A stretch of 46,293 nucleotides of DNA from a virus (Duplodnaviria > Heunggongvirae > Uroviricota > Caudoviricetes), in IMG/VR virus record IMGVR_UViG_2872164251_000001; one strand, written 5' to 3'. Positions 12,715 through 46,293 of this stretch are shown here, one piece after another. Position numbers and translations under genes: made by a program. The notes beneath the pieces were generated by a model. It had not been told where the DNA came from. It saw nothing but the letters and a program-made list of their open reading frames with translations, and did not search any database. The first letter of the stretch is position 1; every line of letters begins with the position of its first letter.

Positions 12715-12729
12715 GGTAATGACTCCAAC

Positions 12730-16249: not shown

Positions 16250-16261
16250 CATAAACATTGA

Positions 16262-17227: not shown

Positions 17228-17258
17228 CAGAACACTTTCAATTTTTAACCACAGAACG

Positions 17259-27193: not shown

Positions 27194-27309
27194 TCATAAT
27201 TCTCAACTGTCTGAGGGGAGGGGCGGGTCAAATCTCTGTGACCTGACGTCTTCCGGACTGCCCGCCCCATCGTTTTTTTATACCCGCGAAAAATGAAATT
27301 TAACCAGGA

Positions 27310-27813
27310 GTGCCGCATATGGCTGGAACGGCGGGGCGTTCCGGGCGTCGCCCTAAGCCAACGGCGCGCAAGGCGCTGGCCGGAAACCCCGGCAAGCGAG
27401 CCCTGAACAAAGATGAACCTGTTTTTACGCCCATCAAAGGTGTTGAGCCACCGGAGTGGTTCGCTGAAGAAGAGCTTCCTCTCGCCACGATCATGTGGCA
27501 ACTGACAACCAAAGAACTCTGCGGTCAGGGCCTGCTGTGCGTGACTGACCTTGCGGTGCTTGAGCGGTGGTGTGTGGCCTATGAGTTCTGGCGGCGTGCC
27601 GTGAAAAATATTGCCAGACAGGGCAACACCATCACCGGTGCAATGGGCGGTATGGTCAAAAATCCGGAGCTGACCGCCAAAAAAGAACAGGAGTCCGAGA
27701 TGAGCAGCACGGGGGCAATGCTCGGACTCGACCCCAGTAGCCGCCAGCGTCTGATTGGCCTGGCGGGGCAGAAGAAAGCCACTAACCCGTTTCTGAAAAT
27801 CATCGAGTCATGA
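27310..27813 (+). CDS. Terminase small subunit (P27 family)
   Basis: [22 protein letters not shown]-terminus. Confidence 0.75.
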
Positions 27814-29543
27814 GCCGGAAATCTTACCCCAACGTAAATGCTGCCAATCAGTATGCCCGTGATGTCGTGCGCGGAAAGATTGTGGCCTGCCAGTTTGTGA
27901 TTCAGGCCTGCCAGCGCCATCTTGATGACCTGATGGCGGAAAAAAGTAAGTCGTTTCGTTACCGCTTCGACAAGGAGCTGGCTGAACGGGCCGCGAAATT
28001 TATTCAGCTGTTGCCACACACCAAGGGGGAGTGGGCATTCAAGAGGATGCCCATCACGCTGGAGCCGTGGCAGCTCTTTGTGATCTGCTGTGCGTTTGGC
28101 TGGGTCAATAAAGGGTCCCGGCTGCGCCGCTTCCGGGAGGTGTATACCGAAATCCCCCGTAAGAACGGCAAATCGGCAATCTCTGCCGGTGTTGCCCTGT
28201 ATTGTTTTGCCTGTGATAACGAGTTTGGCGCGGAAGTGTATTCCGGTGCCACGACAGAGAAACAGACGTGGGAAGTCTTTCGCCCGGCGCGACTGATGTG
28301 TAAACGCACACCCATGCTGACGGAAGCGTTCGGGATTGAGGTTAACGCCTCAAACATGAACCGTCCGGAGGATGGGGCGCGGTTTGAACCGCTGATTGGT
28401 AACCCCGGTGATGGTTCATCACCCCACTGTGCGGTGGTGGATGAATATCACGAGCACGCCACAGATGCGCTTTACACCACGATGCTTACCGGGATGGGGG
28501 CGCGACGTCAGCCACTGATGTGGGCTATCACTACCGCCGGGTACAACATTGAGGGGCCGTGCTACGACAAACGGCGGGAAGTCATCGAGATGCTCAACGG
28601 TTCGGTACCCAACGATGAACTGTTCGGGATTATCTATACCGTTGATGAAGGTGACGACTGGACCGACCCGCAGGTGCTGGAAAAAGCCAATCCAAATATT
28701 GGCGTGTCGGTTTATCGCGAATTTTTGTTAAGTCAGCAGCAGCGTGCGAAAAATAACGCCCGTCTGGCAAACGTCTTTAAAACAAAACACCTCAATATCT
28801 GGGTGTCGGCGCGTTCGGCGTATTTCAACCTGGTGAGCTGGCAGAGCTGCGAGGATAAATCACTGACCCTTGAGCAGTTCGAGGGGCAGCCGTGCATTCT
28901 GGCCTTTGACCTGGCGCGTAAGCTGGATATGAACAGCATGGCGCGACTTTATACCCGCGAGATTGACGGTAAAACGCATTACTACAGTGTGGCCCCGCGT
29001 TTCTGGGTACCGTATGACACGGTGTACAGCGTCGAGAAAAATGAAGATCGACGGACAGCCGAACGCTTTCAGAAATGGGTGGAAATGGGCGTTCTGACCG
29101 TTACCGATGGTGCGGAGGTGGATTATCGCTACATCCTCGAGGAGGCCAAAGCGGCGAACAAAATCAGTCCGGTCAGTGAGTCACCCATCGACCCCTTCGG
29201 GGCGACCGGGTTGTCACATGACCTTGCTGATGAAGACCTGAACCCCATCACTATCATTCAGAACTACACCAACATGTCCGACCCGATGAAAGAGCTGGAA
29301 GCGGCAATTGAATCGGGGCGCTTTCATCATGATGGCAATCCCATCATGACCTAGTGTATCGGCAACGTGGTCGGCAAAACCATTCCGGGTAACGATGATG
29401 TGGTGAAGCCCGTCAAAGAGCAGGCGGAAAACAAAATTGACGGTGCAGTTGCGCTGATTATGGCGGTTGGCAGAGCCATGCTGTACGAGAAAGAAGACAC
29501 GCTGTCTGACCACATTGAGTCCTATGGGATCCGCTCGCTTTAA
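27810..29543 (+). pseudogene. Terminase large subunit with in-frame amber codon at 29352-29354
   Basis: ORF ends ...GNPIMT-TAG then the same frame continues CIGNVVGK...[22 protein letters not shown]... for 62 codons to TAA at 29541. Confidence 0.7.
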
Positions 29544-29554
29544 CTGAGGTAATT

Positions 29555-29737
29555 ATGATCATGCTGATTCTCGCGCCTCTGGTGGGCGTGCTGGGGGCGC
29601 TTTTGCTGGCGTATGGTGCCTGGCTGATTTATCCCCCGGCGGGGTTTGTTGTTGCCGGGGCGTTGTGCCTGTTCTGGTCGTGGCTGGTGGCGCGATATCT
29701 CGACCGTACACAGTCGTCTGTCGGCGGAGGTAAATAG
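29555..29737 (+). CDS. Small hydrophobic protein
   Basis: 60-aa ORF with TM-like segment between terminase and portal. Confidence 0.35.
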
Positions 29738-30978
29738 TGTTCTTTTCGGGATTATTTCAACGAAAAAGTGACGCACCGGTGACCACGCCAGCAGAGCTGG
29801 CGGATGATATCGGGTTGTCCTACGACACCTATACCGGAAAGCAGATCAGCAGCCAGCGGGCCATGCGACTGACGGCGGTTTTTTCCTGTGTCAGGGTGCT
29901 GGCGGAGTCGGTCGGGATGTTGCCCTGCAACCTGTATCACCTGAACGGCAGCCTGAAGCAGAGAGCCACTGGCGAACGTCTGCATAAGCTGATCTCCACG
30001 CATCCCAATGGCTATATGACGCCGCAGGAGTTCTGGGAGCTGGTGGTCACCTGTCTGTGCCTGCGGGGAAACTTTTACGCCTACAAAGTGAAAGCATTTG
30101 GCGAAGTGGCTGAACTGCTGCCCGTCGATCCCAGCTGTGTGGTACCGAAGCTTAACAGTAGCTGGGAGCCGGTCTATCAGGTCACATTCCCGGATGGCTC
30201 CGCGGATGTACTGAGCCAGGAGGATATCTGGCATGTGCGCACGCTGACGCTGGACGGACTGGTGGGGCTGAATCCCATCGCCTATGCCCGCGAGGCAATA
30301 TCGCTGGCGGCAGCGACCGAAGAGCACGGGGCCAGACTGTTCAGCAATGGCGCGGTGACGTCGGGTGTGTTGCGTACAGAGCAGACGCTGTCAGATCAGG
30401 CTTACGAGCGCCTGAAGAAAGATTTTGAGGAGCGTCACACCGGGCTTGGCAATGCTCACCGCCCGATGATCCTTGAGATGGGGCTGGACTGGAAGTCGAT
30501 GGCGCTGAACGCCGAGGACAGCCAGTTCCTGGAAACCCGCAAGTTTCAGCTTGAAGAAATCTGTCGTCTGTTCCGGGTGCCGTTGCACATGGTGCAGAAC
30601 ACCGATCGCGCCACTTTCAACAATATTGAAGAGCTGGGGCTGGGATTTATCAACTATTCACTGGTGCCGTATCTGACCCGCATCGAACAGCGGATCAACA
30701 CCGGACTGGTACGAAAAAGTAAGCAGGGCGTTTATTACGCCAAATTTAACGCCGGGGCGTTACTGCGCGGGGATATGAAGTCCCGTTTTGAAGCCTACGC
30801 CACCGGGATTAACTGGGGAATTTACTCTCCCAATGACTGCCGCGACCTGGAAGATATGAATCCGCGTCCCGGTGGTGATGTCTATCTCACACCGATGAAC
30901 ATGACCACGAAACCCTCCGATGGCAGTAAAGCCGGTAAGCAGAAGGATAACGCCAATGCAGACGAAACAACGTCTTGA
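29737..30978 (+). CDS. Portal protein (HK97 family)
   Basis: 413 aa, position after terminase, portal-like sequence. Confidence 0.8.
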   Translation: MFFSGLFQRKSDAPVTTPAELADDIGLSYDTYTGKQISSQRAMRLTAVFSCVRVLAESVGMLPCNLYHLNGSLKQRATGERLHKLISTHPNGYMTPQEFWELVVTCLCLRGNFYAYKVKAFGEVAELLPVDPSCVVPKLNSSWEPVYQVTFPDGSADVLSQEDIWHVRTLTLDGLVGLNPIAYAREAISLAAATEEHGARLFSNGAVTSGVLRTEQTLSDQAYERLKKDFEERHTGLGNAHRPMILEMGLDWKSMALNAEDSQFLETRKFQLEEICRLFRVPLHMVQNTDRATFNNIEELGLGFINYSLVPYLTRIEQRINTGLVRKSKQGVYYAKFNAGALLRGDMKSRFEAYATGINWGIYSPNDCRDLEDMNPRPGGDVYLTPMNMTTKPSDGSKAGKQKDNANADETTS

Positions 30979-31606
30979 TGTACCGCTGAGTCTGAAATCT
31001 GTCAGTGACTCCGGTGAGTTTGAAGGGTATGGCTCCGTCTTTGGTGTAAAGGACAGCCACGATGATGTGGTGATGTCCGGGGCATTTGCCGCTTCCCTGC
31101 GGGCGTGGAGTGACAGAAAAGCGTTACCTGCGCTGCTCTGGCAGCACCGCATGGATGAGCCCATCGGTGTTTACACCGAAATGAAGGAAGACGATGTCGG
31201 GCTTTACGTCAGGGGGCGGTTGCTCATTGATGATGATCCCCTGGCAAAACGCGCACATGCACACATGAAGGCCGGTTCGTTAACCGGCCTTTCTATTGGG
31301 TACGTCCTGAAGGACTGGGAATACGACCGGACGAAAGAAGCCTTTCTGCTGAAAGAAATCGACCTCTGGGAAGTCAGTCTGGTGACGTTTCCGTCTAACG
31401 ACGAGGCGCGGATCAGCGACGTCAAGAACGCGCTGGCCCGCGGGGAAATCCCCGAACAGAAAAAAATCGAAAGAGTCCTGCGTGATGTCGGACTCTCCCG
31501 TACCCAAGCCAAAGCATTCATGGCCGGGGGCTATATCGCACTGTCCCTGCGCGACGCTGAGGATGTGGGCTCTGCACTGAATGCACTGAAAAATCTGAAC
31601 TTCTAA
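30956..31606 (+). CDS. Prohead protease (HK97 family)
   Basis: AAGGA RBS; position between portal and major capsid. Confidence 0.75.
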   Translation: MQTKQRLDVPLSLKSVSDSGEFEGYGSVFGVKDSHDDVVMSGAFAASLRAWSDRKALPALLWQHRMDEPIGVYTEMKEDDVGLYVRGRLLIDDDPLAKRAHAHMKAGSLTGLSIGYVLKDWEYDRTKEAFLLKEIDLWEVSLVTFPSNDEARISDVKNALARGEIPEQKKIERVLRDVGLSRTQAKAFMAGGYIALSLRDAEDVGSALNALKNLNF

Positions 31607-31620
31607 TCAGGAGAAATACG

Positions 31621-32826
31621 ATGGCGGTAGATATTAAAGATGTCGAACAGGTCGCGCAGGAGCTGCAGCAGAAGTTTGACGACTTCAAAGCAAAGAACGA
31701 CAAGCGCGTGGATGCGATTGAGCAGGAAAAAGGCAAGCTTGCCGGGCAGGTGGAAACCCTGAACGGGAAACTCAGCGAGCTGGAAAATCTCAAAAGCGAT
31801 CTTGAAAAAGAGCTGCTTGAGCTGAAACGTCCGGCAGGTGGCGCGCAAAATAAACTGGCCACCGAGCATAAAGAAGCGTTTGTGGGCTTTTTGCGTAAAG
31901 GCCGTGAAGATGGTCTGCGCGATCTGGAGCGTAAGGCATTGCAGGTGGGCACCGATGAAGACGGTGGCTATGCCGTGCCGGAAGCGCTGGATCGCAACAT
32001 TCTCACCCTGCTGAAAGATGAAGTGGTGATGCGCCAGGAAGCCACGGTGATCACCGTTGGCGGTTCCGACTACAAAAAACTGGTGAATCTGGGCGGCACG
32101 GCTTCCGGATGGGTGGGGGAAACGGATACGCGATCCCAGACTGCCACCTCCAGACTGGAGCTGATTGAACCTCTCATGGGGGAAATCTACGGCAACCCGC
32201 AGGCCACCCAGAAAATGCTGGACGATGCCTTCTTCAACGTGGAGGCCTGGATCAACAGCGAGCTGGCAACCGAATTTGCCGAACAGGAAGAAATTGCCTT
32301 TACCACCGGCGATGGTACCAAGAAGCCGAAAGGGTTCCTGGCGTATGAATCCACTGATGAAACCGATAAGGTCCGGGCGTTCGGCAAACTTCAGCATATT
32401 GTATCCGGCGAAGCGACGGCGGTGACCGCAGACGCCATTATCAAACTGATTTACACGCTGCGTAAGGCACACCGCACCGGCGCGAAGTTCATGATGAACA
32501 ACAACAGCCTGTTTGCCATCCGTCTGCTTAAAGACAGCGAGGGTAACTATCTGTGGCGTCCGGGGCTGGAACTGGGGCAGCCGTCCTCTCTGGCGGGTTA
32601 CGGTATCGCTGAAAACGAACAGATGCCGGATATCGCCGCTGATGCGAAAGCCATTGCATTTGGTAACTTCAAACGGGGTTACACCATCGTTGACCGTATC
32701 GGCACCCGCATTCTGCGTGACCCGTACACCAATAAACCGTTTGTCGGTTTTTATACCACCAAGCGCACCGGCGGGATGCTGGTCGATTCGCAGGCCATCA
32801 AACTGCTGAAGATTGCAGCGGCGTAA
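31621..32826 (+). CDS. Major capsid protein (HK97 fold) with N-terminal coiled-coil delta domain
   Basis: 401 aa, coiled-coil N-terminus then capsid-like body. Confidence 0.85.
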   Translation: MAVDIKDVEQVAQELQQKFDDFKAKNDKRVDAIEQEKGKLAGQVETLNGKLSELENLKSDLEKELLELKRPAGGAQNKLATEHKEAFVGFLRKGREDGLRDLERKALQVGTDEDGGYAVPEALDRNILTLLKDEVVMRQEATVITVGGSDYKKLVNLGGTASGWVGETDTRSQTATSRLELIEPLMGEIYGNPQATQKMLDDAFFNVEAWINSELATEFAEQEEIAFTTGDGTKKPKGFLAYESTDETDKVRAFGKLQHIVSGEATAVTADAIIKLIYTLRKAHRTGAKFMMNNNSLFAIRLLKDSEGNYLWRPGLELGQPSSLAGYGIAENEQMPDIAADAKAIAFGNFKRGYTIVDRIGTRILRDPYTNKPFVGFYTTKRTGGMLVDSQAIKLLKIAAA

Positions 32827-32875
32827 TCACTCAGGGGCGCGGAACCGCGCCCCCTGTTCTGACGGGTGAAGAATC

Positions 32876-33076
32876 ATGATCCTGAAACAAGATCTGAAAT
32901 GGTCACCGGACGGTATGCGTGTTGAGGTCATTCGGGCCGGTGAGTATGACGACGGGGCGCTTCCTGCCCGGGTGCAGGAGATTGCACTTCAGGCCGGGTT
33001 AGCAGAGCGCGGAACCAGTGCAAAAAGCAGTAAAGCGACAAAAGAGAAAAAAGCCACGACCAGTAAAGAGGGCTGA
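32876..33076 (+). CDS. Hypothetical small head-region protein
   Basis: 66-aa ORF with Lys-rich tail. Confidence 0.35.
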   Translation: MILKQDLKWSPDGMRVEVIRAGEYDDGALPARVQEIALQAGLAERGTSAKSSKATKEKKATTSKEG

Positions 33077-33078
33077 GT

Positions 33079-33402
33079 ATGCTTCTGACAATGGAAGAGA
33101 TTAAAGCCCAACTCCGGCTGGATGAGGATTTCGATGCTGATGACCGCCATCTGCAACTGCTGGCCTGTGCGGCACAAAAGCGGACGGAAACGTATCTGAA
33201 CCGGAAGCTCTATGCACCGGATGAAACCATTCCGGACAGCGATCCGGACGGGCTGCACCTGCCGGATGATATTCGTCTGGGGATGCTGATGCTTATCAGC
33301 CATTTTTACGAAAACCGCTCGTCGGTTACGGAAGTGGAGAAACTTGACATGCCGCAGAGTTTTGGCTGGCTTGTCGGCCCGTACAGGTACTTTCCGCAAT
33401 GA
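33079..33402 (+). CDS. Head-tail connector protein (gp6-like)
   Basis: Position and size. Confidence 0.55.
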   Translation: MLLTMEEIKAQLRLDEDFDADDRHLQLLACAAQKRTETYLNRKLYAPDETIPDSDPDGLHLPDDIRLGMLMLISHFYENRSSVTEVEKLDMPQSFGWLVGPYRYFPQ

Positions 33403-33809
33403 AAATTCGTCAGGCGCAGACCAGCGCAACCTACATTCTGCCGGACCCCGGTGAACTGAATAAACGCGTCCTGATCCGCCTGCGGGTGGATATGCCCGCG
33501 GATAACTTTGGCGTGGAGCCTCAATACCTGATTACGTTCCGGACATGGGCGAAGGTTATCCAGACCAGTGCCACCACCTGGCAGGAAACCGCGCAGACCG
33601 GGGACGCCATCACCCATTACATCACCATTCGTTACCGCCGGGGGATTACCGCTGATTATGAGGTGGTCTGCGGTGACAGTGTGTACCGGGTGAAACGTCA
33701 GCGCGATCTGAACGGGGCGCGGCGCTTTCTGCTGCTGGAGTGTACGGAACTGGGCGAATGTGGGCAGAGTCACGGAGGCAACAATGACGACTTCCTTTTT
33801 GCACGTTGA
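33399..33809 (+). CDS. Head closure/adaptor protein
   Basis: Position and size, overlapping starts. Confidence 0.5.
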   Translation: MKIRQAQTSATYILPDPGELNKRVLIRLRVDMPADNFGVEPQYLITFRTWAKVIQTSATTWQETAQTGDAITHYITIRYRRGITADYEVVCGDSVYRVKRQRDLNGARRFLLLECTELGECGQSHGGNNDDFLFAR

Positions 33810-34290
33810 TTTTCAGCAGCCCGCGGAGATGCGCTTTAACCGCGCCCGTGTCCGGCGGGCGTTTGTCACGATTGGTCAGCGTCATATGCGTGATGCCCGT
33901 CGGCTGGTGATGCGCCGTGCGCGGTCGGCACCGGGTGAAAACCCCGGTTATCAGACCGGACGCCTGGCTCGTTCGATTGGTTACATGGTACCCAGAGCCA
34001 GTAAACATCGCCCTGGTTTTATGGCACGTATAGCCCCTAACCAGCGTAATGGAGAGGGAAACCGCCGTATCACCGGTGATTTTTATCCGGCTTTTTTGTT
34101 CTATGGCGTGAGGCGAGGGGCAAAGCGTCGTCGCAGCCATCATCGTGGTGCATCCGGTGGCAGCGGCTGGCGACTGGCTCCACGTAATAACTTTATGGTG
34201 GAAACGCTTGAAAAGAACCGCAGCTGGACACGCTATTTTCTGGCGCGGGAATTGCGTAAATCACTGAAGCCGGAGCGACGACACAGATGA
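33784..34290 (+). CDS. Virion morphogenesis protein (Mu G-like)
   Basis: Arg-rich protein before tail genes. Confidence 0.45.
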   Translation: MTTSFLHVDFQQPAEMRFNRARVRRAFVTIGQRHMRDARRLVMRRARSAPGENPGYQTGRLARSIGYMVPRASKHRPGFMARIAPNQRNGEGNRRITGDFYPAFLFYGVRRGAKRRRSHHRGASGGSGWRLAPRNNFMVETLEKNRSWTRYFLARELRKSLKPERRHR

Positions 34291-34847
34291 AACTGACGCC
34301 TGTTATTGCTGCGCTGCGTGCCCGCTGCCCGTATTTTGAAAACCGGGTGGCAGGCGCGGCACAGTTCAAAAATCTGCCGGAGGTCGGAAAGCTGAGACTC
34401 CCGGCGGCGTATGTGGTACCGGGTGATGACTCTCCGGGAGAAAACAAAAGCCAGACCGACTACTGGCAGGAGCTGAAAGAGGGCTTCTCCGTGGTTGTCA
34501 TACTGAGTAACGGGCGTGATGAGCGCGGTCAGTTTGCCTCGTATGATGTGGTGGACGATGTCCGGCAAATGCTCTTTAAGGCCCTGCTGGGCTGGAACCC
34601 GGAAGCGTGCGGTAACCCGATTACCTATGACGGCGGCACGCTGCTGGATCTGAATCGTCATGAGCTGATTTATCAGTTCGATTTTTCGGTCATCAGCGAG
34701 TTGACCGAAGACGATACCCGCCAGCAGGATGACCTGAACAGTCTGGATGAACTGCGAACGCTGGCGATTGATGTTGATTATCTAGAGCCCGGTAACGGGC
34801 CTGACGGCGATATCGAACATCACACCGAAATAACCCTTCCTTCCTGA
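34287..34847 (+). CDS. Tail terminator-like protein (Mu gp37-like)
   Basis: Position upstream of sheath. Confidence 0.45.
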   Translation: MKLTPVIAALRARCPYFENRVAGAAQFKNLPEVGKLRLPAAYVVPGDDSPGENKSQTDYWQELKEGFSVVVILSNGRDERGQFASYDVVDDVRQMLFKALLGWNPEACGNPITYDGGTLLDLNRHELIYQFDFSVISELTEDDTRQQDDLNSLDELRTLAIDVDYLEPGNGPDGDIEHHTEITLPS

Positions 34848-34856
34848 GAATCTTCA

Positions 34857-35024
34857 TGTTTGTGAAACCTGTTAAAGGGCGGTCAGTTCCTGACCCTGCC
34901 CGCGGAGACCTTTTGCCCGCCGAGGGGCGAAATGTTGATGAGAACAACTACTGGCTGCGCCGTGAAGCAGCGGGTGATATCCGGCGCGTGAATGAAAAGG
35001 TGAATACCGATGACGAGCTTTAAC
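34857..35024 (+). CDS. Small protein (Mu gp38-like)
   Basis: 55-aa ORF just before sheath. Confidence 0.35.
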
Positions 35025-36503
35025 ACCATTCCGTCAAATACGCTGGTTCCGATTTTTTATGCGGAAATGGATAACTCGGCGGCGAATACTGCACAGGACA
35101 GCGGAGCATCGCTGCTGATTGGTCATGCCAATAACGGTGCAGAGATTGTTGCCAACAGTCTGGTGCTGATGCCATCGGCAGACTATGCACGCCAGATTTG
35201 TGGTGCGGGAAGTCAGCTGGCGCGTATGGTCGAGGCTTATCGCCAGACCGACCCGTTTGGTGAGCTGTATGTGATTGCCGTTCCAGAAGCCACAGGCGCG
35301 GCGGCAACGGTTACGCTGACGGTGACCGGGGAAGCAACCGAAAGCGGCACGGTGAATGTCTATGTGGGACGTACCCGCGTGCAGGCTCCGGTGACCAACG
35401 GCGATAACGTCACGACGATTGCCAGCAGTATCCAGGATGCCATCAATGCCGTTCCGGCCCTGCCGTTTACGGCTTCATCTTCGGCAGGCGTGGTCACACT
35501 GACCGCGCGTCATAAGGGGCTTTGCGGGAATGAAATTCCTGTCAGCCTCAATTACTACGGCTTTGGTGGGGGCGAAGTGCTGCCAGCGGGCGTACAGATT
35601 GCCGTGGCGACGGGTACCGCCGGAACGGGTGCTCCGGTTCTCACCGGCGCGGTGGCTGCAATGGCGGATGAGCCGTTTGATTATATCGGCCTGCCGTTCA
35701 ACGACACGGCCTCCGTTAACACGCTGGTGACCGAGATGAACGATACCAGCGGTCGCTGGAGCTATGCGCGTCAGCTGTATGGTCATGTGTATACGGCAAA
35801 GATCGGCACGCTGTCAGAACTGGTGACCGCAGGTGACCAGTTTAACCAGCAGCACATTACCCTGGCGGGATACGAAAAAGAGACCCAGACGCCTGCCGAC
35901 GAGCTGGCGGCAAGCCGTACCGCCCGCGCAGCGGTGTTTATTCGCAACGATCCGGCACGTCCCACGCAGACCGGTGAGCTGGTGGGTATGCTGCCTGCGC
36001 CGAAGGGGAAACGGTTCACGATGACCGAACAACAGACCCTGCTGTCTCATGGCGTGGCAACGGCGTATGTCGAAAGCGGGGTGCTGCGCATTCAGCGTGA
36101 TGTCACCACGTACAGGAAAAACGCTTACGGTGTTGCGGATAACAGCTACCTCGACAGCGAGACGCTGCATACCAGCGCGTATGTGCTGCGCAAACTGAAA
36201 TCCGTCATTACCAGTAAGTACGGGCGTCACAAGCTTGCCAGCGACGGTACCCGCTTTGGTCCCGGTCAGGCGATTGTCACACCGGCGGTGATCAAAGGGG
36301 AACTGCTGGCAACCTACCGTCAGCTTGAGCGTGCGGGGATCGTGGAAAACTACGAACTGTTTAAGCAGTACCTGGTTGTGGAGCGTGATGCCAGCGATCC
36401 GAACCGCCTGAACACGCTGTTCCCGCCTGACTATGTTAACCAGTTGCGTGTCTTTGCCGTGGTTAACCAGTTCCGTCTTCAGTATTCAGAGGAGTCTGCA
36501 TAA
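35010..36503 (+). CDS. Contractile tail sheath protein
   Basis: 497 aa followed by tube gene. Confidence 0.8.
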   Translation: MTSFNTIPSNTLVPIFYAEMDNSAANTAQDSGASLLIGHANNGAEIVANSLVLMPSADYARQICGAGSQLARMVEAYRQTDPFGELYVIAVPEATGAAATVTLTVTGEATESGTVNVYVGRTRVQAPVTNGDNVTTIASSIQDAINAVPALPFTASSSAGVVTLTARHKGLCGNEIPVSLNYYGFGGGEVLPAGVQIAVATGTAGTGAPVLTGAVAAMADEPFDYIGLPFNDTASVNTLVTEMNDTSGRWSYARQLYGHVYTAKIGTLSELVTAGDQFNQQHITLAGYEKETQTPADELAASRTARAAVFIRNDPARPTQTGELVGMLPAPKGKRFTMTEQQTLLSHGVATAYVESGVLRIQRDVTTYRKNAYGVADNSYLDSETLHTSAYVLRKLKSVITSKYGRHKLASDGTRFGPGQAIVTPAVIKGELLATYRQLERAGIVENYELFKQYLVVERDASDPNRLNTLFPPDYVNQLRVFAVVNQFRLQYSEESA

Positions 36504-36859
36504 TGGCCCGTATCGGGGGAACCTGTTATTTCAAAATTGACGGTCAACAGCTATCGCTGACCGGCGGCATTGAGGTGCCCATGAACAGGACGGTCAATGA
36601 TGACATCATCGGCCTGGACGGTTCAGTGGACCGCAAGGAAACTCACCGTGCGCCTTATGTCAAAGGGACCTTCAAGGTGCCGAAGAATTTTCCGGCGAGC
36701 AAAATCACCTCGTCTGATGAGATGACCATCACTGCCGAGCTGGCGAACGGTCAGGTCTATGTACTGTCGTCTGCCTGGCTGCACGGCGAAGCGAACCATA
36801 ATGCCGAAGAAGGCACGGTCGATCTTGAGTTCCACGGTGAAGAAGGGGATTACCAGTAA
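36503..36859 (+). CDS. Tail tube protein
   Basis: 118 aa between sheath and chaperone. Confidence 0.7.
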   Translation: MARIGGTCYFKIDGQQLSLTGGIEVPMNRTVNDDIIGLDGSVDRKETHRAPYVKGTFKVPKNFPASKITSSDEMTITAELANGQVYVLSSAWLHGEANHNAEEGTVDLEFHGEEGDYQ

Positions 36860-37128
36860 TGAAAGAGCTTGAGTTAAAGAAACCGATTACCGCTCATGGC
36901 GAGACACTCTCCGTACTGGAGTTTGATGAGCCCACCGGGAAAGATGTCCGCGAGCTGGGGTATCCCTACCAGATGAATCAGGATGAGTCCGTCAGACTTC
37001 TGGCGCATGTGGTATCGAAATATATTGTGCGGCTGGCGAAAGTGCCGCAAAGCTCTGTCGACCAGATGTCTCCGGCAGACCTGAATGCAGCGGCGTGGCT
37101 TGTGGCTGGTTTTTTCCTCCAGGCCTGA
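36859..37128 (+). CDS. Tail assembly chaperone (G-like)
   Basis: 89 aa, ends with slippery T_TTT_TTC. Confidence 0.6.
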   Translation: MKELELKKPITAHGETLSVLEFDEPTGKDVRELGYPYQMNQDESVRLLAHVVSKYIVRLAKVPQSSVDQMSPADLNAAAWLVAGFFLQA

Positions 37129-37277
37129 CGGCTGAATACCTTACTGATCGCTTCTTTGATTGCGCCAGCTACTGGCGCATTAATCCCTTCGAATTGCTGA
37201 ATATGCCGATCAGTGAAATTCCCTTGCTGGTCAGTCAGGCAAACAGGATAGAGCAGGAGAAACGCACACATGGCTGA
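36859..37277 (+). CDS. Tail assembly chaperone frameshift product (GT-like) via -1 shift at 37110-37116
   Basis: -1 frame open from slippery site to 37277, overlapping tape-measure start. Confidence 0.45.
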
Positions 37278-39105
37278 ATTTGAGCTTAAGGCGTTGATCA
37301 CCGGTGTCGACAGGCTTTCTCCCGCGCTGTCGAAAATGCAAAAGAAAATCCGGGGATTTAAACGCCAGGCGGAAGAAGCGTCACAGGGTGGGCTGGCGCT
37401 TGGTGGCGGACTGGCAGCGGGTCTGACGCTTTCCCTGAAATCTTATGCCGATCAGGAAAACGCCGCCACCGGGCTGAAAGTCGCCATGATGGATGCGAAT
37501 GGCGAGGTTGGAAAGAGCTTTCAGGACATCAATAAACTGGCTATTGGCCTGGGTAACCAGCTACCCGGTACAACGGCTGATTTCCAGAACATGATGCAGA
37601 TGCTGGTGCGTCAGGGGATCCCGGCAGAAAATATTCTTGGCGGTGTGGGTAAAGCGACAGCTTATCTTGCGGTACAACTGAAAAAAACACCGGAAGCGGC
37701 TGCTGAGTTTGCTGCAAAGATGCAGGATGCTACCGGAACGGCGTCAGAAGACATGATGGGGCTGTTCGACACTATCCAGAAGGCGTTTTATCTGGGCGTT
37801 GACGATACCAACATGTTGTCCTTCTTCACTAAAACCAGTTCTGTTCTGAAGATGGTGAACAAGGACGGTCTTCAGGCTGCACAGAGCCTTGCCCCCATCA
37901 GCGTCATGATGGATCAGATGGGGATGAACGGGGAGTCGGCAGGTAATGCCCTGCGAAAAGTTATCCAGTCCGGATTAAGCGTTAAGAAAATCAGGGACGT
38001 CAATAAAATCATGGCCCGCCAGAAACTCGGGGTACAGCTCGATTTTACTGACGGCAAAGGAAGTTTTGGCGGTCTTGATAACATGTTCAGGCAACTGGCA
38101 AAGCTGCGAAAACTGACCGACGTTAAGCGAACAGGTGTACTTAAGGCAATATTTGGTGATGATGCCGAAACCCTTCAGGTGGTCAATGCACTAATCGATA
38201 AAGGAAAGGATGGCTACGATCAGATCCAGCAGAAGATGAATAAACAGGCCAGCCTGAATAAACGTGTTCAGGCCCAGCTTGGTACGCTGTCCAACCTGTG
38301 GGAGGCAATGACGGGGACCGCAACTAACGGCCTTGCGGCTATTGGCGGCGCATTTTCTGGTGACGCCAAAAATATCACGCAATGGCTGGGGGAGTTGGGG
38401 GAGAAATTCACGAAGTTTGCGGATGAAAATCCCCGGGTTATTCGCGGCGTCGTCGGGCTTGCTGCCGGTCTTGCGATTCTGAAACTGGGATTGATGGGCG
38501 TGGGCAGTGCCATCAGTATCGTCAGCAGGATCATGTCGATGACGCCGATTGGCATGATTGCGACGGCGATTGCCCTGGCTGCGGGATTAATTATCACTAA
38601 CTGGGATGTTGTCGGACCTTATTTCAAGAAGCTCTGGGAAACCATTGGTCCTTATTTTGAGGCTGGCTGGGAACTCCTTAAGAAAGTTTTTGCCTGGTCG
38701 CCGCTGGGGATGGTGATCAATCACTGGGGGCCGGTTGTTAAGTGGTTTCAGGATATGTGGGACAAGCTGAAGCCAATTATTGAGTGGTTTACCGACAGTT
38801 CCGGAGACACGGTCGATGCCATTAACTCTGCGCAGTGGGGCGCGGGTGCTTATGATGCTTATGGGACGGGAATACCGGCACGGGGATACACACCTTATCC
38901 GGCGGTGGATCCGGCTCAGTCAAACAACGCCTCCGATGCCACAGGCCCGAATCCCTTCATGATTAACAAAGCTTCTGCGCCAAAAGTTGATGGTGAGATC
39001 AAGGTCTCTTTTGTGAATTCGCCTCCGGGGATGCGGGTTATGGAAACGCGATCCAGCGGTTTTGATGTCAGCCATGATGTTGGCTATACGCGCTTTGGCA
39101 GGTAA
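37270..39105 (+). CDS. Tail tape measure protein
   Basis: 611 aa, Gly/Ala-rich, TM-like segments. Confidence 0.85.
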   Translation: MAEFELKALITGVDRLSPALSKMQKKIRGFKRQAEEASQGGLALGGGLAAGLTLSLKSYADQENAATGLKVAMMDANGEVGKSFQDINKLAIGLGNQLPGTTADFQNMMQMLVRQGIPAENILGGVGKATAYLAVQLKKTPEAAAEFAAKMQDATGTASEDMMGLFDTIQKAFYLGVDDTNMLSFFTKTSSVLKMVNKDGLQAAQSLAPISVMMDQMGMNGESAGNALRKVIQSGLSVKKIRDVNKIMARQKLGVQLDFTDGKGSFGGLDNMFRQLAKLRKLTDVKRTGVLKAIFGDDAETLQVVNALIDKGKDGYDQIQQKMNKQASLNKRVQAQLGTLSNLWEAMTGTATNGLAAIGGAFSGDAKNITQWLGELGEKFTKFADENPRVIRGVVGLAAGLAILKLGLMGVGSAISIVSRIMSMTPIGMIATAIALAAGLIITNWDVVGPYFKKLWETIGPYFEAGWELLKKVFAWSPLGMVINHWGPVVKWFQDMWDKLKPIIEWFTDSSGDTVDAINSAQWGAGAYDAYGTGIPARGYTPYPAVDPAQSNNASDATGPNPFMINKASAPKVDGEIKVSFVNSPPGMRVMETRSSGFDVSHDVGYTRFGR

Positions 39106-39165
39106 TGAAAAATTAATCTGTTAATGAGTCCCACTCCGGTGGGATTTTTTATGTACGGAGTTTAT

Positions 39166-40494
39166 ATGACGTGGAAAGACAGACTTCAGGACGCGTCATT
39201 TCGCGGTGTGCCGTTTAAGGTTGAAGAAGAAAGTGCGGGAACCGGTCGTCGTGTGGAAACGCACGAATACCCGAACCGCGACAAACCCTATACCGAAGAC
39301 CTGGGGAAAATCACTTTCCGCCCGTCCATCACGGCTTATGTGGTGGGCGATGACTGCTTTGACCAGCGCGATCGCCTGATTGACGCGCTGAATAAACCCG
39401 GTCCCGGCACGCTTGTCCATCCGACATACGGTGAGCTGAAAGTCTGTGTTGACGGAGAAGTTCGGGTCAGCACATCGAAGAATGAAGGGCGTATTGTCCG
39501 CTTTGACCTGAAGTTTGTCGAAGCGGGAGAACTCTCTTACCCCACATCAGGTGCGGCGACGGCGCAGACGCTGATGTCATCCTGTTCTGCACTGGATGAC
39601 TGCATCAGTGACAGCTTCAGCGGTTTCAGTATCGATGGTGTGGCGGATTTCGTGCAGAACGACGTTATCGGTAATGCCAGCATAATGCTGGGGTATGTTT
39701 CTGATGCGATGAAAGTGGTGGATTCTGCCGTATCGGATGTCGCCAGGCTGTTGCAGGGGGATATCTCGGTACTTCTGCCGCCGCCATCGTCAGGCAAAAA
39801 TTTCGTTGAGCAGGTGCAGAAAATGTGGCGTACCGGGAAACGCCTTTATGGTAACGCCAGCGACCTGGTCACCATGATCAAAACGCTTTCCGGTGTCAGC
39901 CTCGGCAGCGATCTGCAACCGCGCGGCGTCTGGAAAACGGACAGTAAAACCACCGCCACGGCGACGCAGCAGCGTAACGTGGTTGCCAGCACCCTTCGTA
40001 CGACCGCAATCAGCGAAGCGGCGTATGCCGTCACCCGATTGCCTGCGCCAACAACTTCCGCGGTGATGCAGAATGCCGCAGTGGGGCAGGCAACAACACC
40101 CGCGCAGAGCACTTGCTGGCCTTCCGCCACGCATCCGGCACTGAACAATGCACCGGCGGTGAAAAACACGGTTGACCTGCCGACGTGGGAAGAACTGACT
40201 GACATTCGCGACACACTGAATACGGCAATTGATAAGGAGTTGTCCCGTACAACCAGCGATGCGCTGTTTCTGGCGCTGCGCCGGGTGAAAGCAGATCTGA
40301 ATGCGGATATCAACACGCGCCTTGAACAGTCTGCACGGATCATTCAGCGCACACCGGATGAGGTTTTACCCGCGCTGGTGCTGGCGGCGACCTGGTTTGA
40401 TAACGCGGCGCGTGACGCGGACATTATCCGGCGTAATGCCATTACGCATCCCGGCTTTGTGCCGGTGATCCCTCTGAAGGTGCCAGTGCAATGA
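39166..40494 (+). CDS. DNA circularization protein (Mu N-like)
   Basis: Position after tape measure; GGAG RBS before MTWKD. Confidence 0.6.
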   Translation: MTWKDRLQDASFRGVPFKVEEESAGTGRRVETHEYPNRDKPYTEDLGKITFRPSITAYVVGDDCFDQRDRLIDALNKPGPGTLVHPTYGELKVCVDGEVRVSTSKNEGRIVRFDLKFVEAGELSYPTSGAATAQTLMSSCSALDDCISDSFSGFSIDGVADFVQNDVIGNASIMLGYVSDAMKVVDSAVSDVARLLQGDISVLLPPPSSGKNFVEQVQKMWRTGKRLYGNASDLVTMIKTLSGVSLGSDLQPRGVWKTDSKTTATATQQRNVVASTLRTTAISEAAYAVTRLPAPTTSAVMQNAAVGQATTPAQSTCWPSATHPALNNAPAVKNTVDLPTWEELTDIRDTLNTAIDKELSRTTSDALFLALRRVKADLNADINTRLEQSARIIQRTPDEVLPALVLAATWFDNAARDADIIRRNAITHPGFVPVIPLKVPVQ

Positions 40495-41570
40495 ACGATA
40501 ACGTCACGCTACGGGTAAATGGCCGGGAGTGGAATGGCTGGACATCGGTGCGCATCGGTGCCGGTATTGAACGGCTGGCGCGGGATTTCAGTGTGGAGAT
40601 CTCCCGCCAGTGGCCGGGAGATGGGGGTATCACCACGCTTCAGCCGCGCATTAAAAACGGTTCAAAAGTGGAAGTGCTGATTGGTGATGAGCTGGTGATC
40701 ACCGGCTGGGTGGAGGCGACGCCCGTTCGTTACGATGCCCGTTCGGTCAGCACCGGTATTGCCGGACGCAGTCTGACGGCTGACCTGATTGACTGTGCAG
40801 CCGAACCGACACAGTTTAACGGACGAGAGCTGGTACAGATTGCGCAGGCGCTTGCTGCGCCTTTCGGCATTGAGGTGGTGAACAACGGTGCGCCGTCGGG
40901 TGTTATTCCTGACGTCCAGCCCGATCACGGTGAAACGGTGATTGAGGTAATCAACAAAATACTCGGTCAGCAGCAGGCACTGGCTTACGACGACCCGCAC
41001 GGCAGGCTGGTGATTGGTGGTATTGGCTCAACGCGGGCACATACTGCGCTGGTACTCGGGGAAAACATCCTTTCCTGCGATACGGAGAAGAGTATCCGGG
41101 AGCGGTTTTCTGTTTACCAGGTGGCGGGGCAGCGTGCCGGAAACGACGATGATTTCGGTGAGGCCACCACCACCGCGCTGCGGGCCCGCACAGAGGACGC
41201 ATTTATTGCCCGTTACCGTCCGATGTATATCAGGCAGACAGGGCAGGCTACGGGGGCAGGCTGTATTGCGCGTGCTGACTTTGAAGCCCGGCAACGGGCG
41301 GCGCGGACGGATGAAACCACCTATGTGGTGCAGGGCTGGCGACAGGGTAACGGTACGCTGTGGCAGCCCAACCAGCGGGTGATTGTCTTCGATCCGGTCT
41401 GTGGTTTTGACAATACCGAACTGCTTGTCTCGGAAGTCACGTTTACTCAGGACCAGAATGGCACTCTGACGGAAATCCGTGTCGGCCCGCCTGATGCTTA
41501 TCTGCCTGAACCCGAAGACCCCGGCGCGCGGAAAAAGAAAAAAGCCAGAGTACAGGAGGACCCGTTCTGA
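40491..41570 (+). CDS. Baseplate hub protein (Mu gp44 / P2 gpD-like)
   Basis: 359 aa in baseplate cluster. Confidence 0.6.
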   Translation: MNDNVTLRVNGREWNGWTSVRIGAGIERLARDFSVEISRQWPGDGGITTLQPRIKNGSKVEVLIGDELVITGWVEATPVRYDARSVSTGIAGRSLTADLIDCAAEPTQFNGRELVQIAQALAAPFGIEVVNNGAPSGVIPDVQPDHGETVIEVINKILGQQQALAYDDPHGRLVIGGIGSTRAHTALVLGENILSCDTEKSIRERFSVYQVAGQRAGNDDDFGEATTTALRARTEDAFIARYRPMYIRQTGQATGAGCIARADFEARQRAARTDETTYVVQGWRQGNGTLWQPNQRVIVFDPVCGFDNTELLVSEVTFTQDQNGTLTEIRVGPPDAYLPEPEDPGARKKKKARVQEDPF

Positions 41571-42118
41571 TGAGGACGATTGAAGCCATGCAGCGACAAC
41601 TCCTCGGCCTGATTGGGCGGGCCGTGGTGAAAAGCATCAGTGCCGCCACGAAATGTCTGACCGTGGATGTGTCCCTGATTGCCGGTGAACCCAAAGCCGG
41701 GGTTGAACATCTTGAACCCTACGGTTTTACCGCAAGGGCAAACAGCGGTGCGGAAGCGGTGGTGTTGTTTCCGGATGGCGACCGTTCTCATGCGGTGGTT
41801 GTTACGGTGTCAGACCGGCGCTACCGCCTGAAAGGGCTGCAGACGGGTGAGGTGGCTGTCTATGACGATCAGGGGCAGTCCGTGACGCTGACCCGGGAGG
41901 GGATCGTGGTGGACGGTGCAGGTAAAACGATCACGTTTCGCAATGCACCTGAAGCACGTTTTGAAATGGACCTGGAAGTAACAGGACAGGTGAAAGACCT
42001 GTGCGACTCCGGCGGCACCACCATGTCAGCAATGCGGCTTGCCTATAACGGTCATCGTCACAGAGAGAACGGTCAGGGCAGTAACACCGATAAACCTGAT
42101 AAAGCTATGGAGGCATGA
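41570..42118 (+). CDS. Baseplate assembly protein V (spike)
   Basis: 182 aa gpV-like. Confidence 0.65.
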   Translation: MRTIEAMQRQLLGLIGRAVVKSISAATKCLTVDVSLIAGEPKAGVEHLEPYGFTARANSGAEAVVLFPDGDRSHAVVVTVSDRRYRLKGLQTGEVAVYDDQGQSVTLTREGIVVDGAGKTITFRNAPEARFEMDLEVTGQVKDLCDSGGTTMSAMRLAYNGHRHRENGQGSNTDKPDKAMEA

Positions 42119-42543
42119 TGGAACTGTGGCTGACGGTGAACGGTAAACGCACCTGCGCCAGCGCACCGCTGGATCCGCTGACCCGCGCCGTGGTGATTTC
42201 CCTGTTTACCTGGCGGCGGGCGGAGCCTGATGACAACGCCGACGTCCCGATGGGATGGTGGGGGGATACCTGGCCTGCGGTACAGAATGACCGTTACGGC
42301 TCCCGACTGTGGCTGCTTCAGCGCAGCAAACTGACCAATCAGCTGGTGCAGACGGTAAGGGGGTATATCCGCGAATGCCTGCAATGGATGATTGATGACG
42401 GCGTGGTGTCCCGTATTGATCTGGATATCCGCCGCACCGGGATTAATGAACTGGGTAACAGTATCACTCTCTGGCGTCGTGACGGACCGGTAATGATTTC
42501 TTTTGATGATCTGTGGAGTGCGATAACGCATGGCGGACAGTGA
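42115..42543 (+). CDS. Baseplate protein (Mu gp46-like)
   Basis: 142 aa, position. Confidence 0.6.
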   Translation: MMELWLTVNGKRTCASAPLDPLTRAVVISLFTWRRAEPDDNADVPMGWWGDTWPAVQNDRYGSRLWLLQRSKLTNQLVQTVRGYIRECLQWMIDDGVVSRIDLDIRRTGINELGNSITLWRRDGPVMISFDDLWSAITHGGQ

Positions 42544-43588
42544 ATTTCAGCGCCCGACGCTGGCAGAAAATATCAGTATGCTCCGTAACGATTTATTCGC
42601 CAGGCTGGACGTCAGCGACACGCTCCGGCGCATGGATGAAGACGTGCGGGCAAAGGTGTATGCGGCGGCGCTGCATACGGTTTACGGGTACATCGATTAT
42701 CTGGCAATGAACATGCTGCCTGACCTGTGCGATGAGTTCTGGCTGGCGCGACATGCTGCGATGAAACGGTGTCCGCGCAAGGGGGCCACGGCTGCCAGCG
42801 GGTATATGCGCTGGGAAGGTGTCAGCGATGGCCTGAAGGTGACCGCCGGAAGTGTTATTCAGCGCGATGACCTGGTTCAGTACACGGCAACTGCCGATGC
42901 AACCAGCTCCGGTGGTGTCCTGCGCCTGCCGATCGCCTGTTCAACTGCAGGCGCGGTCGGTAACGCTGACGACGGTACGGCATTAATCCTGGTCACGCCG
43001 GTGAATGGTCTGCCGTCTTCCGGTGTTGCAGATACCCTGACAGGTGGATTTGATACTGAAGAGCTGGAAACGTGGCGCGCCCGCGTCATTGAGCGGTATT
43101 ACTGGACGCCGCAGGGCGGGGCTGACGGGGACTATGTCGTCTGGGCTAAAGAAGTGCCCGGCATTACCCGTGCATGGACATACCGTCACTGGATGGGAAC
43201 GGGGACTGTCGGTGTGATGATTGCCAGTAGTGACCTGATTAATCCCATTCCGGAAGAATCAACGGAAACGGCGGCAAGACAACATATCGGGCCACTGGCC
43301 CCGGTGGCAGGCTCTGATTTGTATGTGTTCAGGCCGGTGGCGCATACGGTGGATTTTCATATCCGCGTGACGCCGGATACACCGGAAATACGGGCTGCCA
43401 TCACCGCGGAGTTGCGTTCGTTCCTGCTGCGTGATGGTTATCCGCAGGGAGAACTGAAGGTATCGCGTATCAGTGAGGCGATTTCCGGTGCGAACGGGGA
43501 ATACAGCCATCAGTTGCTTGCCCCGGCTGACAATATCTCCATTGCAAAAAATGAACTGGCGGTTCTGGGGACGATTTCATGGACGTGA
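42530..43588 (+). CDS. Baseplate J-like protein (Mu gp47-like)
   Basis: 352 aa, position. Confidence 0.75.
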
Positions 43589-44163
43589 CAAACGATGATT
43601 ACATCCGTCTGTTGTCGGCACTGTTGCCCCCCGGTCCGGCGTGGTCAGCCAGAGATCCGGCGATTGCCGGTGCGGCACCGTCATTAACCCGCGTTCATCA
43701 GCGTGCGGATGTCCTGATGCGGGAGCTGGATCCGCGCACCACCACTGAACTGATAAACCGCTGGGAGCGTCTGTGCGGTCTGCCGGATGAATGTATTCCC
43801 GCAGGAATACAGACCCTTCGCCAGCGTCAGCAACGACTGGATGCGAAGGTTAACCTGGCGGGCGGCATCAATGAGGATTTTTACCTTGCACAGCTTGCTG
43901 CCCTGGGCAGACCAGACGCCACCATCACGCGATACGACAAAAGCACGTTCACCTGCTCATCTGCCTGTACTGACGCGGTGAATGCGCCGGAATGGCGGTA
44001 TTACTGGCAGGTCAACATGCCAGTCGCCACCAACACCACCTGGATGACATGTGGCGATCCCTGTGATTCCGCGCTGCGTATCTGGGGTGACACCGTTGTC
44101 GAGTGTGTGCTTAACAAACTCTGCCCGTCGCATACCTACGTAATTTTTAAATATCCGGAGTAA
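43579..44163 (+). CDS. Tail protein (Mu gp48-like)
   Basis: 194 aa, position. Confidence 0.6.
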
Positions 44164-44166
44164 TCC

Positions 44167-44817
44167 ATGCATCGTATAGACACGAAAACCGCGCAGAAGG
44201 ATAAGTTCGGCGCGGGTAAGAACGGTTTTACCCGTGGTAACCCCCAGACCGGCACACCTGCCACCGATCTGGATGATGACTACTTTGACATGTTGCAGGA
44301 GGAGCTTTGCAGCGTGGTGGAGGCATCCGGTGCCAGCCTGGAGAAGGGGCGGCATGACCAGCTGCTTACCGCGCTTCGTGCGCTGCTGTTAAGCCGCAAG
44401 AATCCGTTTGGCGATATCAAATCGGATGGCACTGTGCAAACGGCTCTCGAAAACCTTGGTTTGGGAGAAGCAGCTAAAAGGAATGTAGGTACAGGGGCGA
44501 ATCAGATACCTGATATGAGCCTGTTCGCGTCAATTAATACCGTAACGGCTGCTGCGCAAAAATTTCCGTCTGGATTAATTTTACAGTGCGGTCAGTTGAA
44601 TGGTGCCCCGAATGTATCTTCAACATACGGGATGAGGTTCCCGATGACGTTCTCAAGAGTCATTGCTGTCGTAGTTACATTGAACGTTACTGGCGCGGCT
44701 GGGCAGCCGACTGTATCGGCGACAAGTGTCCAGAACACTGGATTTAATATTACTGTGTCGCCCGGTTCAGGATACGGTTCATCTGCTGATGCGTATTACA
44801 TTGCAATGGGATATTAA
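44167..44817 (+). CDS. Tail fibre protein
   Basis: 216 aa immediately before tail fibre assembly gene. Confidence 0.55.
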
Positions 44818-44821
44818 CGAA

Positions 44822-45223
44822 ATGTCATATTTTTATTCTGCATCGACAAACGGATTTTATTCGACTGAATTTCACGGCACCAATATTCCTGATGATGCAG
44901 TGGAAATTTCGGAATCAGAGTGGAAAACACTGATTAATGCACAGAGTGTAACAAAAATGATTACCTGTGGTGAGAACGGTCATCCTGTCATTGTTGACCG
45001 TCCTTCTCCAACACCAGAACAATTAGCCTTAATAAATGATGAAAAGAAATCTGCACTGATAGCAGAGGCAACGAATGTAATAGCTCCGCTTCAGGATGCG
45101 GTTGATTTAGGTATGGCAACAGATGATGAAACGAAACTGTTACTGGCATGGAAAAAATATCGGGTGCTGCTTATGCGTGTTAATGTAGTAAAACCCGAGT
45201 GGCCTATGCATCCAAATAAATAG
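44822..45223 (+). CDS. Tail fibre assembly protein (Tfa)
   Basis: MSYFYSASTNGFYSTEFHG... typical Tfa N-terminus. Confidence 0.75.
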   Translation: MSYFYSASTNGFYSTEFHGTNIPDDAVEISESEWKTLINAQSVTKMITCGENGHPVIVDRPSPTPEQLALINDEKKSALIAEATNVIAPLQDAVDLGMATDDETKLLLAWKKYRVLLMRVNVVKPEWPMHPNK

Positions 45224-45966
45224 ACTTGTTAATCTAGGATAATTGTTGGAATAATACTCATTTTTCAGTAGGTTCAGGTAGCCTGGGTATAATGCTCACT
45301 TCTACAATGATTTCAACTTATTTTATTTAATTGATATTACGAAACTTAACTCATACATAAACAATATGACTCAATACTGTCCTAAATAGCTGCGCAGAAA
45401 AGTGCTCCACTTTCGCTCAGCCCTTGCTGGGCGAAGCATCAGGAAGGCGTTCTCAGCTAGGTTGTGTTATATCTGGCTTGAGTTTTGTTGCCCATACGCA
45501 ACACATTACCCATCTGTAAACGACAAGTGTGACAGAATTAGGTGCAGCTATTTAGACTATATCGACGCAGTAACGATAATAGATATCGAAACTGTACTAG
45601 ATATTAGCTACTTATGGTTACCGGGGGGAGTCTTTTGAGCACTGGTGTTATCAATCGGCTTCAAATAATTCACCAATAAATTATATTGCGATAGCTCATC
45701 ACCTTCCAGGTTGTTTATAGCCAGTTTATCAGCGTCACCACCTACTGTTTATGCTTTTATTTCTTTGATTAATGAGTATATGATATTTTAATTCATCTGG
45801 TGTATTTCTTTCTCATGTGTTGGCCGACTGAATATCTGTTCAGTGAAGGGGTAATTTTATGTTTGCACTTCGAACATTCCCTTCAGTTGCCAAGAAAGAA
45901 AACCGTAACATTTGCGCATTAATTTTAACAGTATAATCTGAGCATAAATATGCGCTATATATCTAT

Positions 45967-45994
45967 AAAAAGGCGCAATTAATTGCGCCTTTTT
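45967..45994. terminator. Bidirectional rho-independent terminator
   Basis: AGGCGCAATTAATTGCGCCT perfect hairpin flanked by A-run and T-run. Confidence 0.7.
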
Positions 45995-45995
45995 A

Positions 45996-46293
45996 TCATT
46001 TTATCAAAAATGGCCCACCGACTGTCCTCGATAGCCAATGGCCAATTTTATCTGATACATATACACAAATACAGGTATATATGATTGCGCAGATAGGATT
46101 TGGAATGGTCACGCTGAAGCCTATGATTGCTAAAGCCATAGGGATAAATAATTTGGTGATATACTCCATTCCACATATGTTAAGAGTATTTCTTCCAGCT
46201 CTTACAATAAAGTCATTCCCACAAATTATTTTTGCTATAAAAATATTAAATATTATCAAGCCTACCGTGGTGATAATAGTATTAATAGCTTGA
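45996..46293 (-). CDS. C-terminal part of an integral membrane protein (gene continues beyond window); possible O-antigen-modification gene
   Basis: Frame open to window edge, hydrophobic, AT-rich; position distal to tail fibre genes. Confidence 0.4.
   Translation of the reverse strand, partial: QAINTIITTVGLIIFNIFIAKIICGNDFIVRAGRNTLNICGMEYITKLFIPMALAIIGFSVTIPNPICAIIYTCICVYVSDKIGHWLSRTVGGPFLIK

Follow-up and report, generated by a model that had tools for sequence, protein, structure and literature searches.

The stretch between positions 45224 and 46293 of the window (the whole piece of Caudoviricetes DNA analysed here, 46,293 nucleotides long) most probably represents, at a probability of about 0.88, the place where the tail module of an SfII-type prophage meets its lysogenic-conversion module. 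On this reading it holds the wreck of an invertible tail-fibre segment, a MITE of the IS630/ISEc33 type that entered the wreck later, and then a terminator and the 3′ end of the O-antigen acetyltransferase gene oacD, both of which are likely to be functional. The locus is a known one, present in a published phage genome, with no feature outside known types, and what is added here is the annotation of the MITE and of the invertible-segment remnant (Table 1). The initial annotation had placed the region at the tail-distal end of a serotype-converting phage carrying an O-antigen modification gene, and that placement is borne out, the phage being of the SfII type and the gene being oacD.

By megablast, positions 45224–46293 match Shigella phage SfII (KC736978 / NC_021857) over their full length at 98.8% DNA identity, and nine E. 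coli chromosomes at 96.1–99.6% identity. On a larger scale, window positions 27196–46293 are collinear with SfII 3–19103 at 97.9% identity, and the best relative examined is 99.15% identical over the last 3.3 kb of the window. The window is nearer to the E. coli prophages (99.6%) than to SfII; those prophages carry a DUF6056 protein as the serotype-specific gene, whereas SfII carries gtrII. The gene order in SfII is tail fibre, assembly gene, a 772-bp gap, terminator, acyltransferase, transposase, gtrII-gtrB-gtrA, attP, and int with xis. The counterpart of the present stretch is flanked there by SfII_24 (tail fiber assembly protein) and SfII_25 (acyltransferase, minus strand, 349 aa), and gap, terminator and SfII_25 (region 18034–19855) follow each other as they do in the window, but the SfII record has no annotation of a MITE or of pseudogenes. 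The value of reading this unannotated gap as pseudogenes and a MITE is mainly one of annotation.

Table 1. Features at and around the tail/conversion junction, in window coordinates.
Feature	Coordinates	Strand	Basis or remark
Tail fibre gene (216 aa, Gp53-like C-terminal domain)	44167..44817	+	Pfam PF21882, E=2e-13; equals SfII_23
Surviving invertase crossover site (hix/gix-like), CTCTCGAAAACCTTGGTTTGGGAGAA	44444..44469	+	Identical 26-mer in vB_EcoM-606R2
Intact tail fibre assembly gene	44822..45223	+	Pfam Caudo_TAP PF02413, E=8e-26; SfII_24 in the SfII record, from 44789
AT-rich spacer	45224..45339	.	Homology confined to SfII-like prophages
Tail-fibre-assembly pseudogene, left piece (two in-frame stops; ends at the CTA of CTAG)	45340..45384	+	Alignment with the MITE removed
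168-bp IS630/ISEc33-type MITE	45385..45552	+	Sharp CTA...TAG limits; ISEc33-like ends
Tail-fibre-assembly pseudogene, right piece (C-terminal LDYIDAV...WLP motif) through the TGA stop	45555..45638	+	tblastn
Tail-fibre-assembly pseudogene of the alternative (inverted-orientation) gene	45626..45890	-	blastn, tblastn
Putative bidirectional intrinsic terminator, perfect 16+16 palindrome	45965..45996	.	ATAAAAAGGCGCAATT/AATTGCGCCTTTTTAT, A5 and T5 flanks
3′ end of oacD (acyltransferase-3 O-antigen O-acetyltransferase), codons 252-349 and stop	45996..46293	-	97/98 residues as in SfII_25

Positions 43800–46293 were read for ORFs, composition, repeats and terminators. The region was originally described as AT-rich, and it has a GC content of 0.34–0.42 against 0.55–0.61 in the upstream tail genes, the drop starting within the tail fibre gene at about 44450. 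The description of some 770 bp without convincing ORFs after the assembly gene is likewise accurate. Between the stop of that gene (45223) and position 45995 lie 772 bp, in which just three ORFs reach 30 aa, all on the + strand: one of 78 aa with a GTG start (45402–45638), one of 31 aa and one of 40 aa. The largest of them joins the interior of the MITE to the tail of a pseudogene, a chimera that illustrates how a widespread small IS630-type element could mislead ORF callers. Distant blastn searches of phages and E. coli genomes with the spacer (45224–45339) matched SfII-type sequences only, and local tblastn gave no match to it; for 45891–45964 no relatives were detected. Within the intact tail fibre assembly gene, positions 45016–45192 (+) match Rfam family IS009 below threshold (52.9 bits against a gathering score of 117, E=7e-11). 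The IS009 family may itself be modelled on a fragment of a tail fibre assembly gene.

The inverted repeat that had been reported in the gap is present and perfect. Its arms are 12 bp long rather than 11, at 45382–45393 (CTAAATAGCTGC) and 45544–45555 (GCAGCTATTTAG); they lengthen to 14 bp with one G-T pair and to 31 nt at 71% complementarity. On its own the repeat is only mildly unusual, since 23 of 1000 mononucleotide shuffles also contain one with perfect arms of 12 bp or more, and its real significance comes from homology. In distant blastn searches with the non-coding stretch, about 120 E. coli genomes and plasmids match only query positions 159–332 (equal to 45382–45555), at 69–76% identity. 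An alignment of three copies limits the homology to exactly CTAAATAGCTGCGC ... GCGCAGCTATTTAG, beyond which the flanks are unrelated. Judged by these limits, the repeat pair is the pair of terminal inverted repeats of a MITE. The target duplications are TA at 45383–45384 and 45553–45554, within a single CTAG site whose outer bases are 45382 and 45555.

The ends of the element place it with the IS630 family. A 42-nt query from the left end matched IS630 and ISEc33 ends on hundreds of plasmids, and among the IS elements extracted from these matches is a 1153-bp IS bounded by CTA...TAG. When ISEc33 is oriented by its transposase gene, the family consensus of the MITE is identical to it at 22 of 22 bases on the left and 29 of 29 on the right, in the same polarity; the copy in the window agrees with the ISEc33 ends at 20/22 and 19/22 bases. 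IS630 has been described as inserting at TA within 5′-CTAG-3′ with duplication of the TA (Tenzen and Ohtsubo 1991). The MITE thus resembles IS630 (of Shigella sonnei) and ISEc33 in its terminal repeats, its TA-in-CTAG target and its TA duplication, but it shares with them only the terminal ~22–29 bp on each side, is small and without a transposase, and has an interior unrelated to the IS. It is predicted to be mobilised in trans by a cognate IS630-family transposase.

Copies of the MITE span at least 10 genera and are found in phages, plasmids and Rhs loci. An exact-pattern scan with the left 23 bases returned 14 loci and 17 viral contigs, the loci lying in Erwinia, Dickeya, Serratia, Klebsiella, Kluyvera, Brenneria, Trabulsiella, Pantoea, Cedecea, Yersinia and Symbiopectobacterium. 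The 17 distinct full-length copies that were compared are 172–174 bp long, and 17 of 17 begin with CTA and end with TAG (C-TA...TA-G). Single-base indels among these copies mark the element as non-coding. When the genes neighbouring the copies were compared across locus types, there was no gene in common. Erwinia tracheiphila has two near-identical copies at different loci of one genome, which indicate apparently recent movement. Copy number is nevertheless low, with a median of one place per genome carrying the MITE, which is atypical for MITEs. The pneumococcal RUP, also a MITE mobilised by an IS630-family transposase, is present in ~100 copies, whereas the element of the window usually occurs once per genome.

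Most chromosomal E. coli copies, such as that of E. coli M8 (L004, 4001–4173), lie inside Rhs loci, where they are situated between a toxin/immunity pair and orphan Rhs fragments and adjoin ISEc1. In Yersinia pekkanenii (L015, 6646–7359) the MITE is reduced to its left ~95 nt, which abut a frameshifted gene for a small tyrosine recombinase, and in an E. coli plasmid copy (L003) a fragment of an integrase pseudogene touches the other side of the MITE. A link between the MITE and small tyrosine recombinases was considered and set aside, the only such neighbours being the truncated or pseudogene sequences of L003 and L015, which are not conserved. A role as TnpB guide RNA was discarded as well, since a TnpB gene occurs ~420 bp from the L003 plasmid copy and near no other copy.

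The literature library searched contained no paper found to describe this enterobacterial IS630-type MITE, which does not prove that the element is undescribed. Its low copy number, near-invariant ends and an interior recognisable across many Enterobacterales genera are the grounds for a further reading, namely that the 168-bp element is undescribed and either still mobile or co-opted, for example as a structured RNA or a protein-binding site, and that it lands preferentially in variable-cassette loci (tail-fibre, Rhs). We consider this reading unlikely.

Folding of the repeat-bounded 174-nt unit raises another possibility, that it is the gene of a structured non-coding RNA, either retron-like or some other phage- or defence-associated RNA. 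The + strand of the unit folds at -65.6 kcal/mol (z = -5.0 against shuffles), and the unit is conserved over Enterobacterales genera at low copy number. The closing stem of 12–14 bp, followed by G, presumably recalls the a1/a2 stem of retrons. However, the terminal repeats of IS630/ISEc33 recur at both ends of the unit with the expected polarity, all copies lie within C-TA...TA-G, and most of the folding stability is that of the terminal-repeat stem. Covariation was weak, RNAalifold recovering compensatory changes in only four pairs, with a covariation term of -2.4 kcal/mol, Rfam had no family matching the unit at E <= 1, and neither a reverse transcriptase nor another conserved neighbour gene was found beside the copies. 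A non-coding RNA gene is therefore very unlikely, and the narrower proposal of a retron msr/msd was rejected for want of a nearby reverse transcriptase and of an Rfam match, and for the IS630 terminal repeats at its ends.

Outside the MITE, tail fibre assembly proteins are the sole source of detectable coding homology in the gap, and this holds for either strand. In distant blastn, positions 45662–45824 are ~68% identical to tail fiber assembly genes, although these matches are modest, at E ~1e-3 to 4e-5 against whole collections. In Escherichia phage vB_EcoM-606R2 (locus L005), the match to 45662–45824 falls in the minus-strand assembly gene of an invertible segment. Local tblastn with the 146-aa protein of that gene aligns its residues 47–133 to 45626–45890 in two frames, and the minus-strand pseudogene has one frameshift, in addition to in-frame stops and the absence of its first ~46 codons. 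For the + strand assembly protein encoded by vB_EcoM-606R2, local tblastn gives an alignment to 45552–45623 (LDYIDAVT...WLP) that begins right at the end of the MITE.

Deleting the MITE together with one TA in silico gives GTCCTAGACTAT, and the + strand alignment then extends across the junction to 38 residues. The rejoined frame, RNLTHT*TI*LNTVLDYIDAVTIIDIETVLDISYLWLP, is identical at 20 of 38 positions to RKLTQAETTRLNAVLDYIDAVTATDTSTAPDVIWPELP (residues 159–196 of the vB_EcoM-606R2 assembly protein). That the alignment continues through the reconstructed empty site speaks both for the pseudogene and for an insertion at TA within CTAG. Both pseudogene alignments cover few residues (38 and 84, at 38–53% identity) and come from a tiny local database, so that their E-values are not on a genome scale. 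A natural empty-site allele (...AATACTGTCCTAGACTATATCG... without the element) was absent among the relatives, with all nine full-length E. coli matches (9/9) and SfII carrying the MITE. The partial match of EC812A1 was considered as such an allele and dismissed, the cause being an extra ISKpn26 insertion.

The suggestion that the non-coding stretch is a conversion remnant, that is, a decayed O-antigen modification gene (gtr or oac), fits its location beside the conversion module as well as an AT-richness like that of oacD. Distant DNA searches of the stretch, however, gave no gtr- or acyltransferase-like match, and its coding homologies are those to assembly proteins described above. We regard a decayed gtr or oac gene as highly improbable; in its place stand the pair of tail-fibre-assembly pseudogenes and the IS630-type MITE.

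The two assembly-gene relics converge, with overlapping 3′ ends, like the intact genes of vB_EcoM-606R2. The segment of that phage is ordered as tail fibre, assembly gene (+), assembly gene (-), fibre tip (-) and DNA invertase, and represents here the systems of the Mu G segment with Gin, the e14 P segment with Pin and the P1 C segment with Cin. The likeness to these systems consists of the convergent, 3′-overlapping assembly genes and of an identical 26-bp crossover site. In the window the site lies at the constant/variable junction of the tail fibre gene, where homology to vB_EcoM-606R2 ends and GC content drops. In vB_EcoM-606R2 the same 26-mer is found in the fibre gene, at L005 1889–1914, and its inverted partner (five mismatches) at L005 3711–3736, just upstream of the DNA invertase gene. 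The window site appears to resemble hixL, at 19 of 26 bases. The motif CTGTAAAC, inside the repeat-bounded unit, was evaluated as a gix half-site and rejected, the unit being the MITE and the real crossover site being that at 44444–44469.

What the window lacks, compared with the invertible segments, is a second site, an invertase and an alternative fibre tip, and its two relic assembly genes are pseudogenes. No second crossover site with up to eight mismatches occurs anywhere in the window, and tblastn with the vB_EcoM-606R2 invertase gave no match in 45101–46293, where relatives have oacD. Because there is neither a partner site in the window nor an invertase, the tail-fibre switch is dead and no inversion is possible. 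The remnant shows that SfII-type phages apparently descend from phages with an invertible tail-fibre segment.

From the observed homologies, element boundaries and restoration of the reading frame, we infer the following order of events. The 772 bp described as non-coding would derive from an ancestral tail-fibre segment, invertible like those of Mu (G) and e14 (P), that has since been wrecked. Its remains would be the last ~43 codons of the + strand assembly gene and ~88 codons of the convergent, inverted alternative gene, while the right-hand part would have been lost, and with it the second crossover site, the invertase, the alternative fibre tip and the beginning of the gene for the alternative assembly protein. 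In SfII-type phages, the conversion module (oacD-gtr) would have replaced the invertase end of the segment, bringing the bidirectional terminator and the minus-strand oacD into its place. Later, the 168-bp non-autonomous IS630/ISEc33-type MITE probably inserted into a CTAG of the + strand pseudogene, with duplication of the TA. Only the terminator and oacD are likely to be functional parts of the resulting arrangement.

The strong bidirectional terminator of the initial annotation is confirmed as a structure. Because the palindrome is perfect and has A5 and T5 flanks, positions 45965–45996 read as a terminator on both strands. The palindrome begins at the oacD stop codon, and a putative rho-independent terminator is annotated at the same place in the SfII record. 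If it functions as its structure predicts, it would stop late tail transcription arriving from the left and oacD transcription arriving from the right. Matches to Rfam families STnc40, STnc430 and STnc320 at 45897–46011 were discounted, being below the gathering scores and all located on the terminator hairpin.

The hydrophobic minus-strand protein noted as running off the window is open from 46292 to a stop codon at 45996–45998, a frame of 98 codons. These 98 residues are identical to residues 252–349 of SfII_25 at all but one position, an A versus S difference at residue 320 of 349 (position 69 of the visible 98), and 98 of 98 are identical to 349-aa variants that are common among Enterobacteriaceae, Shigella flexneri included. 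A Pfam search with the 98 visible residues alone gave no match; full-length SfII_25 matches Acyl_transf_3 (PF01757; E=2e-12, residues 15–287). According to later papers that cite Sun et al. (2014, J Bacteriol 196:3656; via PMC8952252, PMC8973906 and PMC9558356), oacD is carried by SfII, mediates 6-O-acetylation of GlcNAc and confers group O-factor 10. Since SfII_25 is the only acyltransferase gene in the SfII record and these citations put oacD on SfII, we take SfII_25 to be oacD. The initial annotation had left the choice between a Gtr-type glycosyltransferase and an O-acetyltransferase, and by homology the protein is the latter and not a Gtr-type glucosyltransferase. OacD is an inner-membrane enzyme of the acyltransferase-3 type and is predicted to perform 6-O-acetylation of O-antigen GlcNAc here, as in Shigella flexneri with SfII.

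That the region might be a decayed or partial conversion locus is correct insofar as it is the edge of such a locus. The gene is partial because the window ends, ~750 bp short of the start of SfII_25, and since its 98 visible codons are without defect the conversion locus does not appear decayed. Among the relatives, oacD is intact in SfII, L022 and the E. coli relative EC812A1, and split by IS903B in another E. coli relative, AR_0061. In the source genome oacD is probably complete and active. The window itself contains no gtr genes (gtrA, gtrB or a serotype-specific gtr), which in SfII and in the related E. coli prophages lie 2–5 kb beyond the position of the window end.

The hydrophobic ORF could also be an unrelated host membrane gene, with the window ending outside the prophage, an explanation whose only ground is the truncation of the ORF by the window. 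Its 99% identity to the phage-borne SfII_25 argues against this, as does its position in SfII and the E. coli relatives, where it is a gene within the prophage, with gtr genes and then the attachment end after it. In no relative examined did the downstream sequence consist of an unrelated host membrane gene with no phage attachment site nearby, and a host origin is almost certainly incorrect. Antisense to oacD, a 70-aa hydrophobic ORF occupies positions 46081–46293 (+), up to the final base of the window; the AT-rich codons of a membrane protein most likely produce it as an artefact.

Both oacD and the SfII conversion module have already been characterised. They bear on Shigella serotyping and on the design of O-antigen vaccines because O-acetylation changes epitopes.

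At the other end of the window, two IS911-like copies (1032–2280 and 10163–11415) stand in inverted orientation, with 99.6% and 98.9% identity to the IS911 of SfII. The pair brackets remnants of a different, lambdoid/P22-like prophage, including antitermination, lysis and terminase genes. Window positions 65–467 are 67% identical to SfII int.
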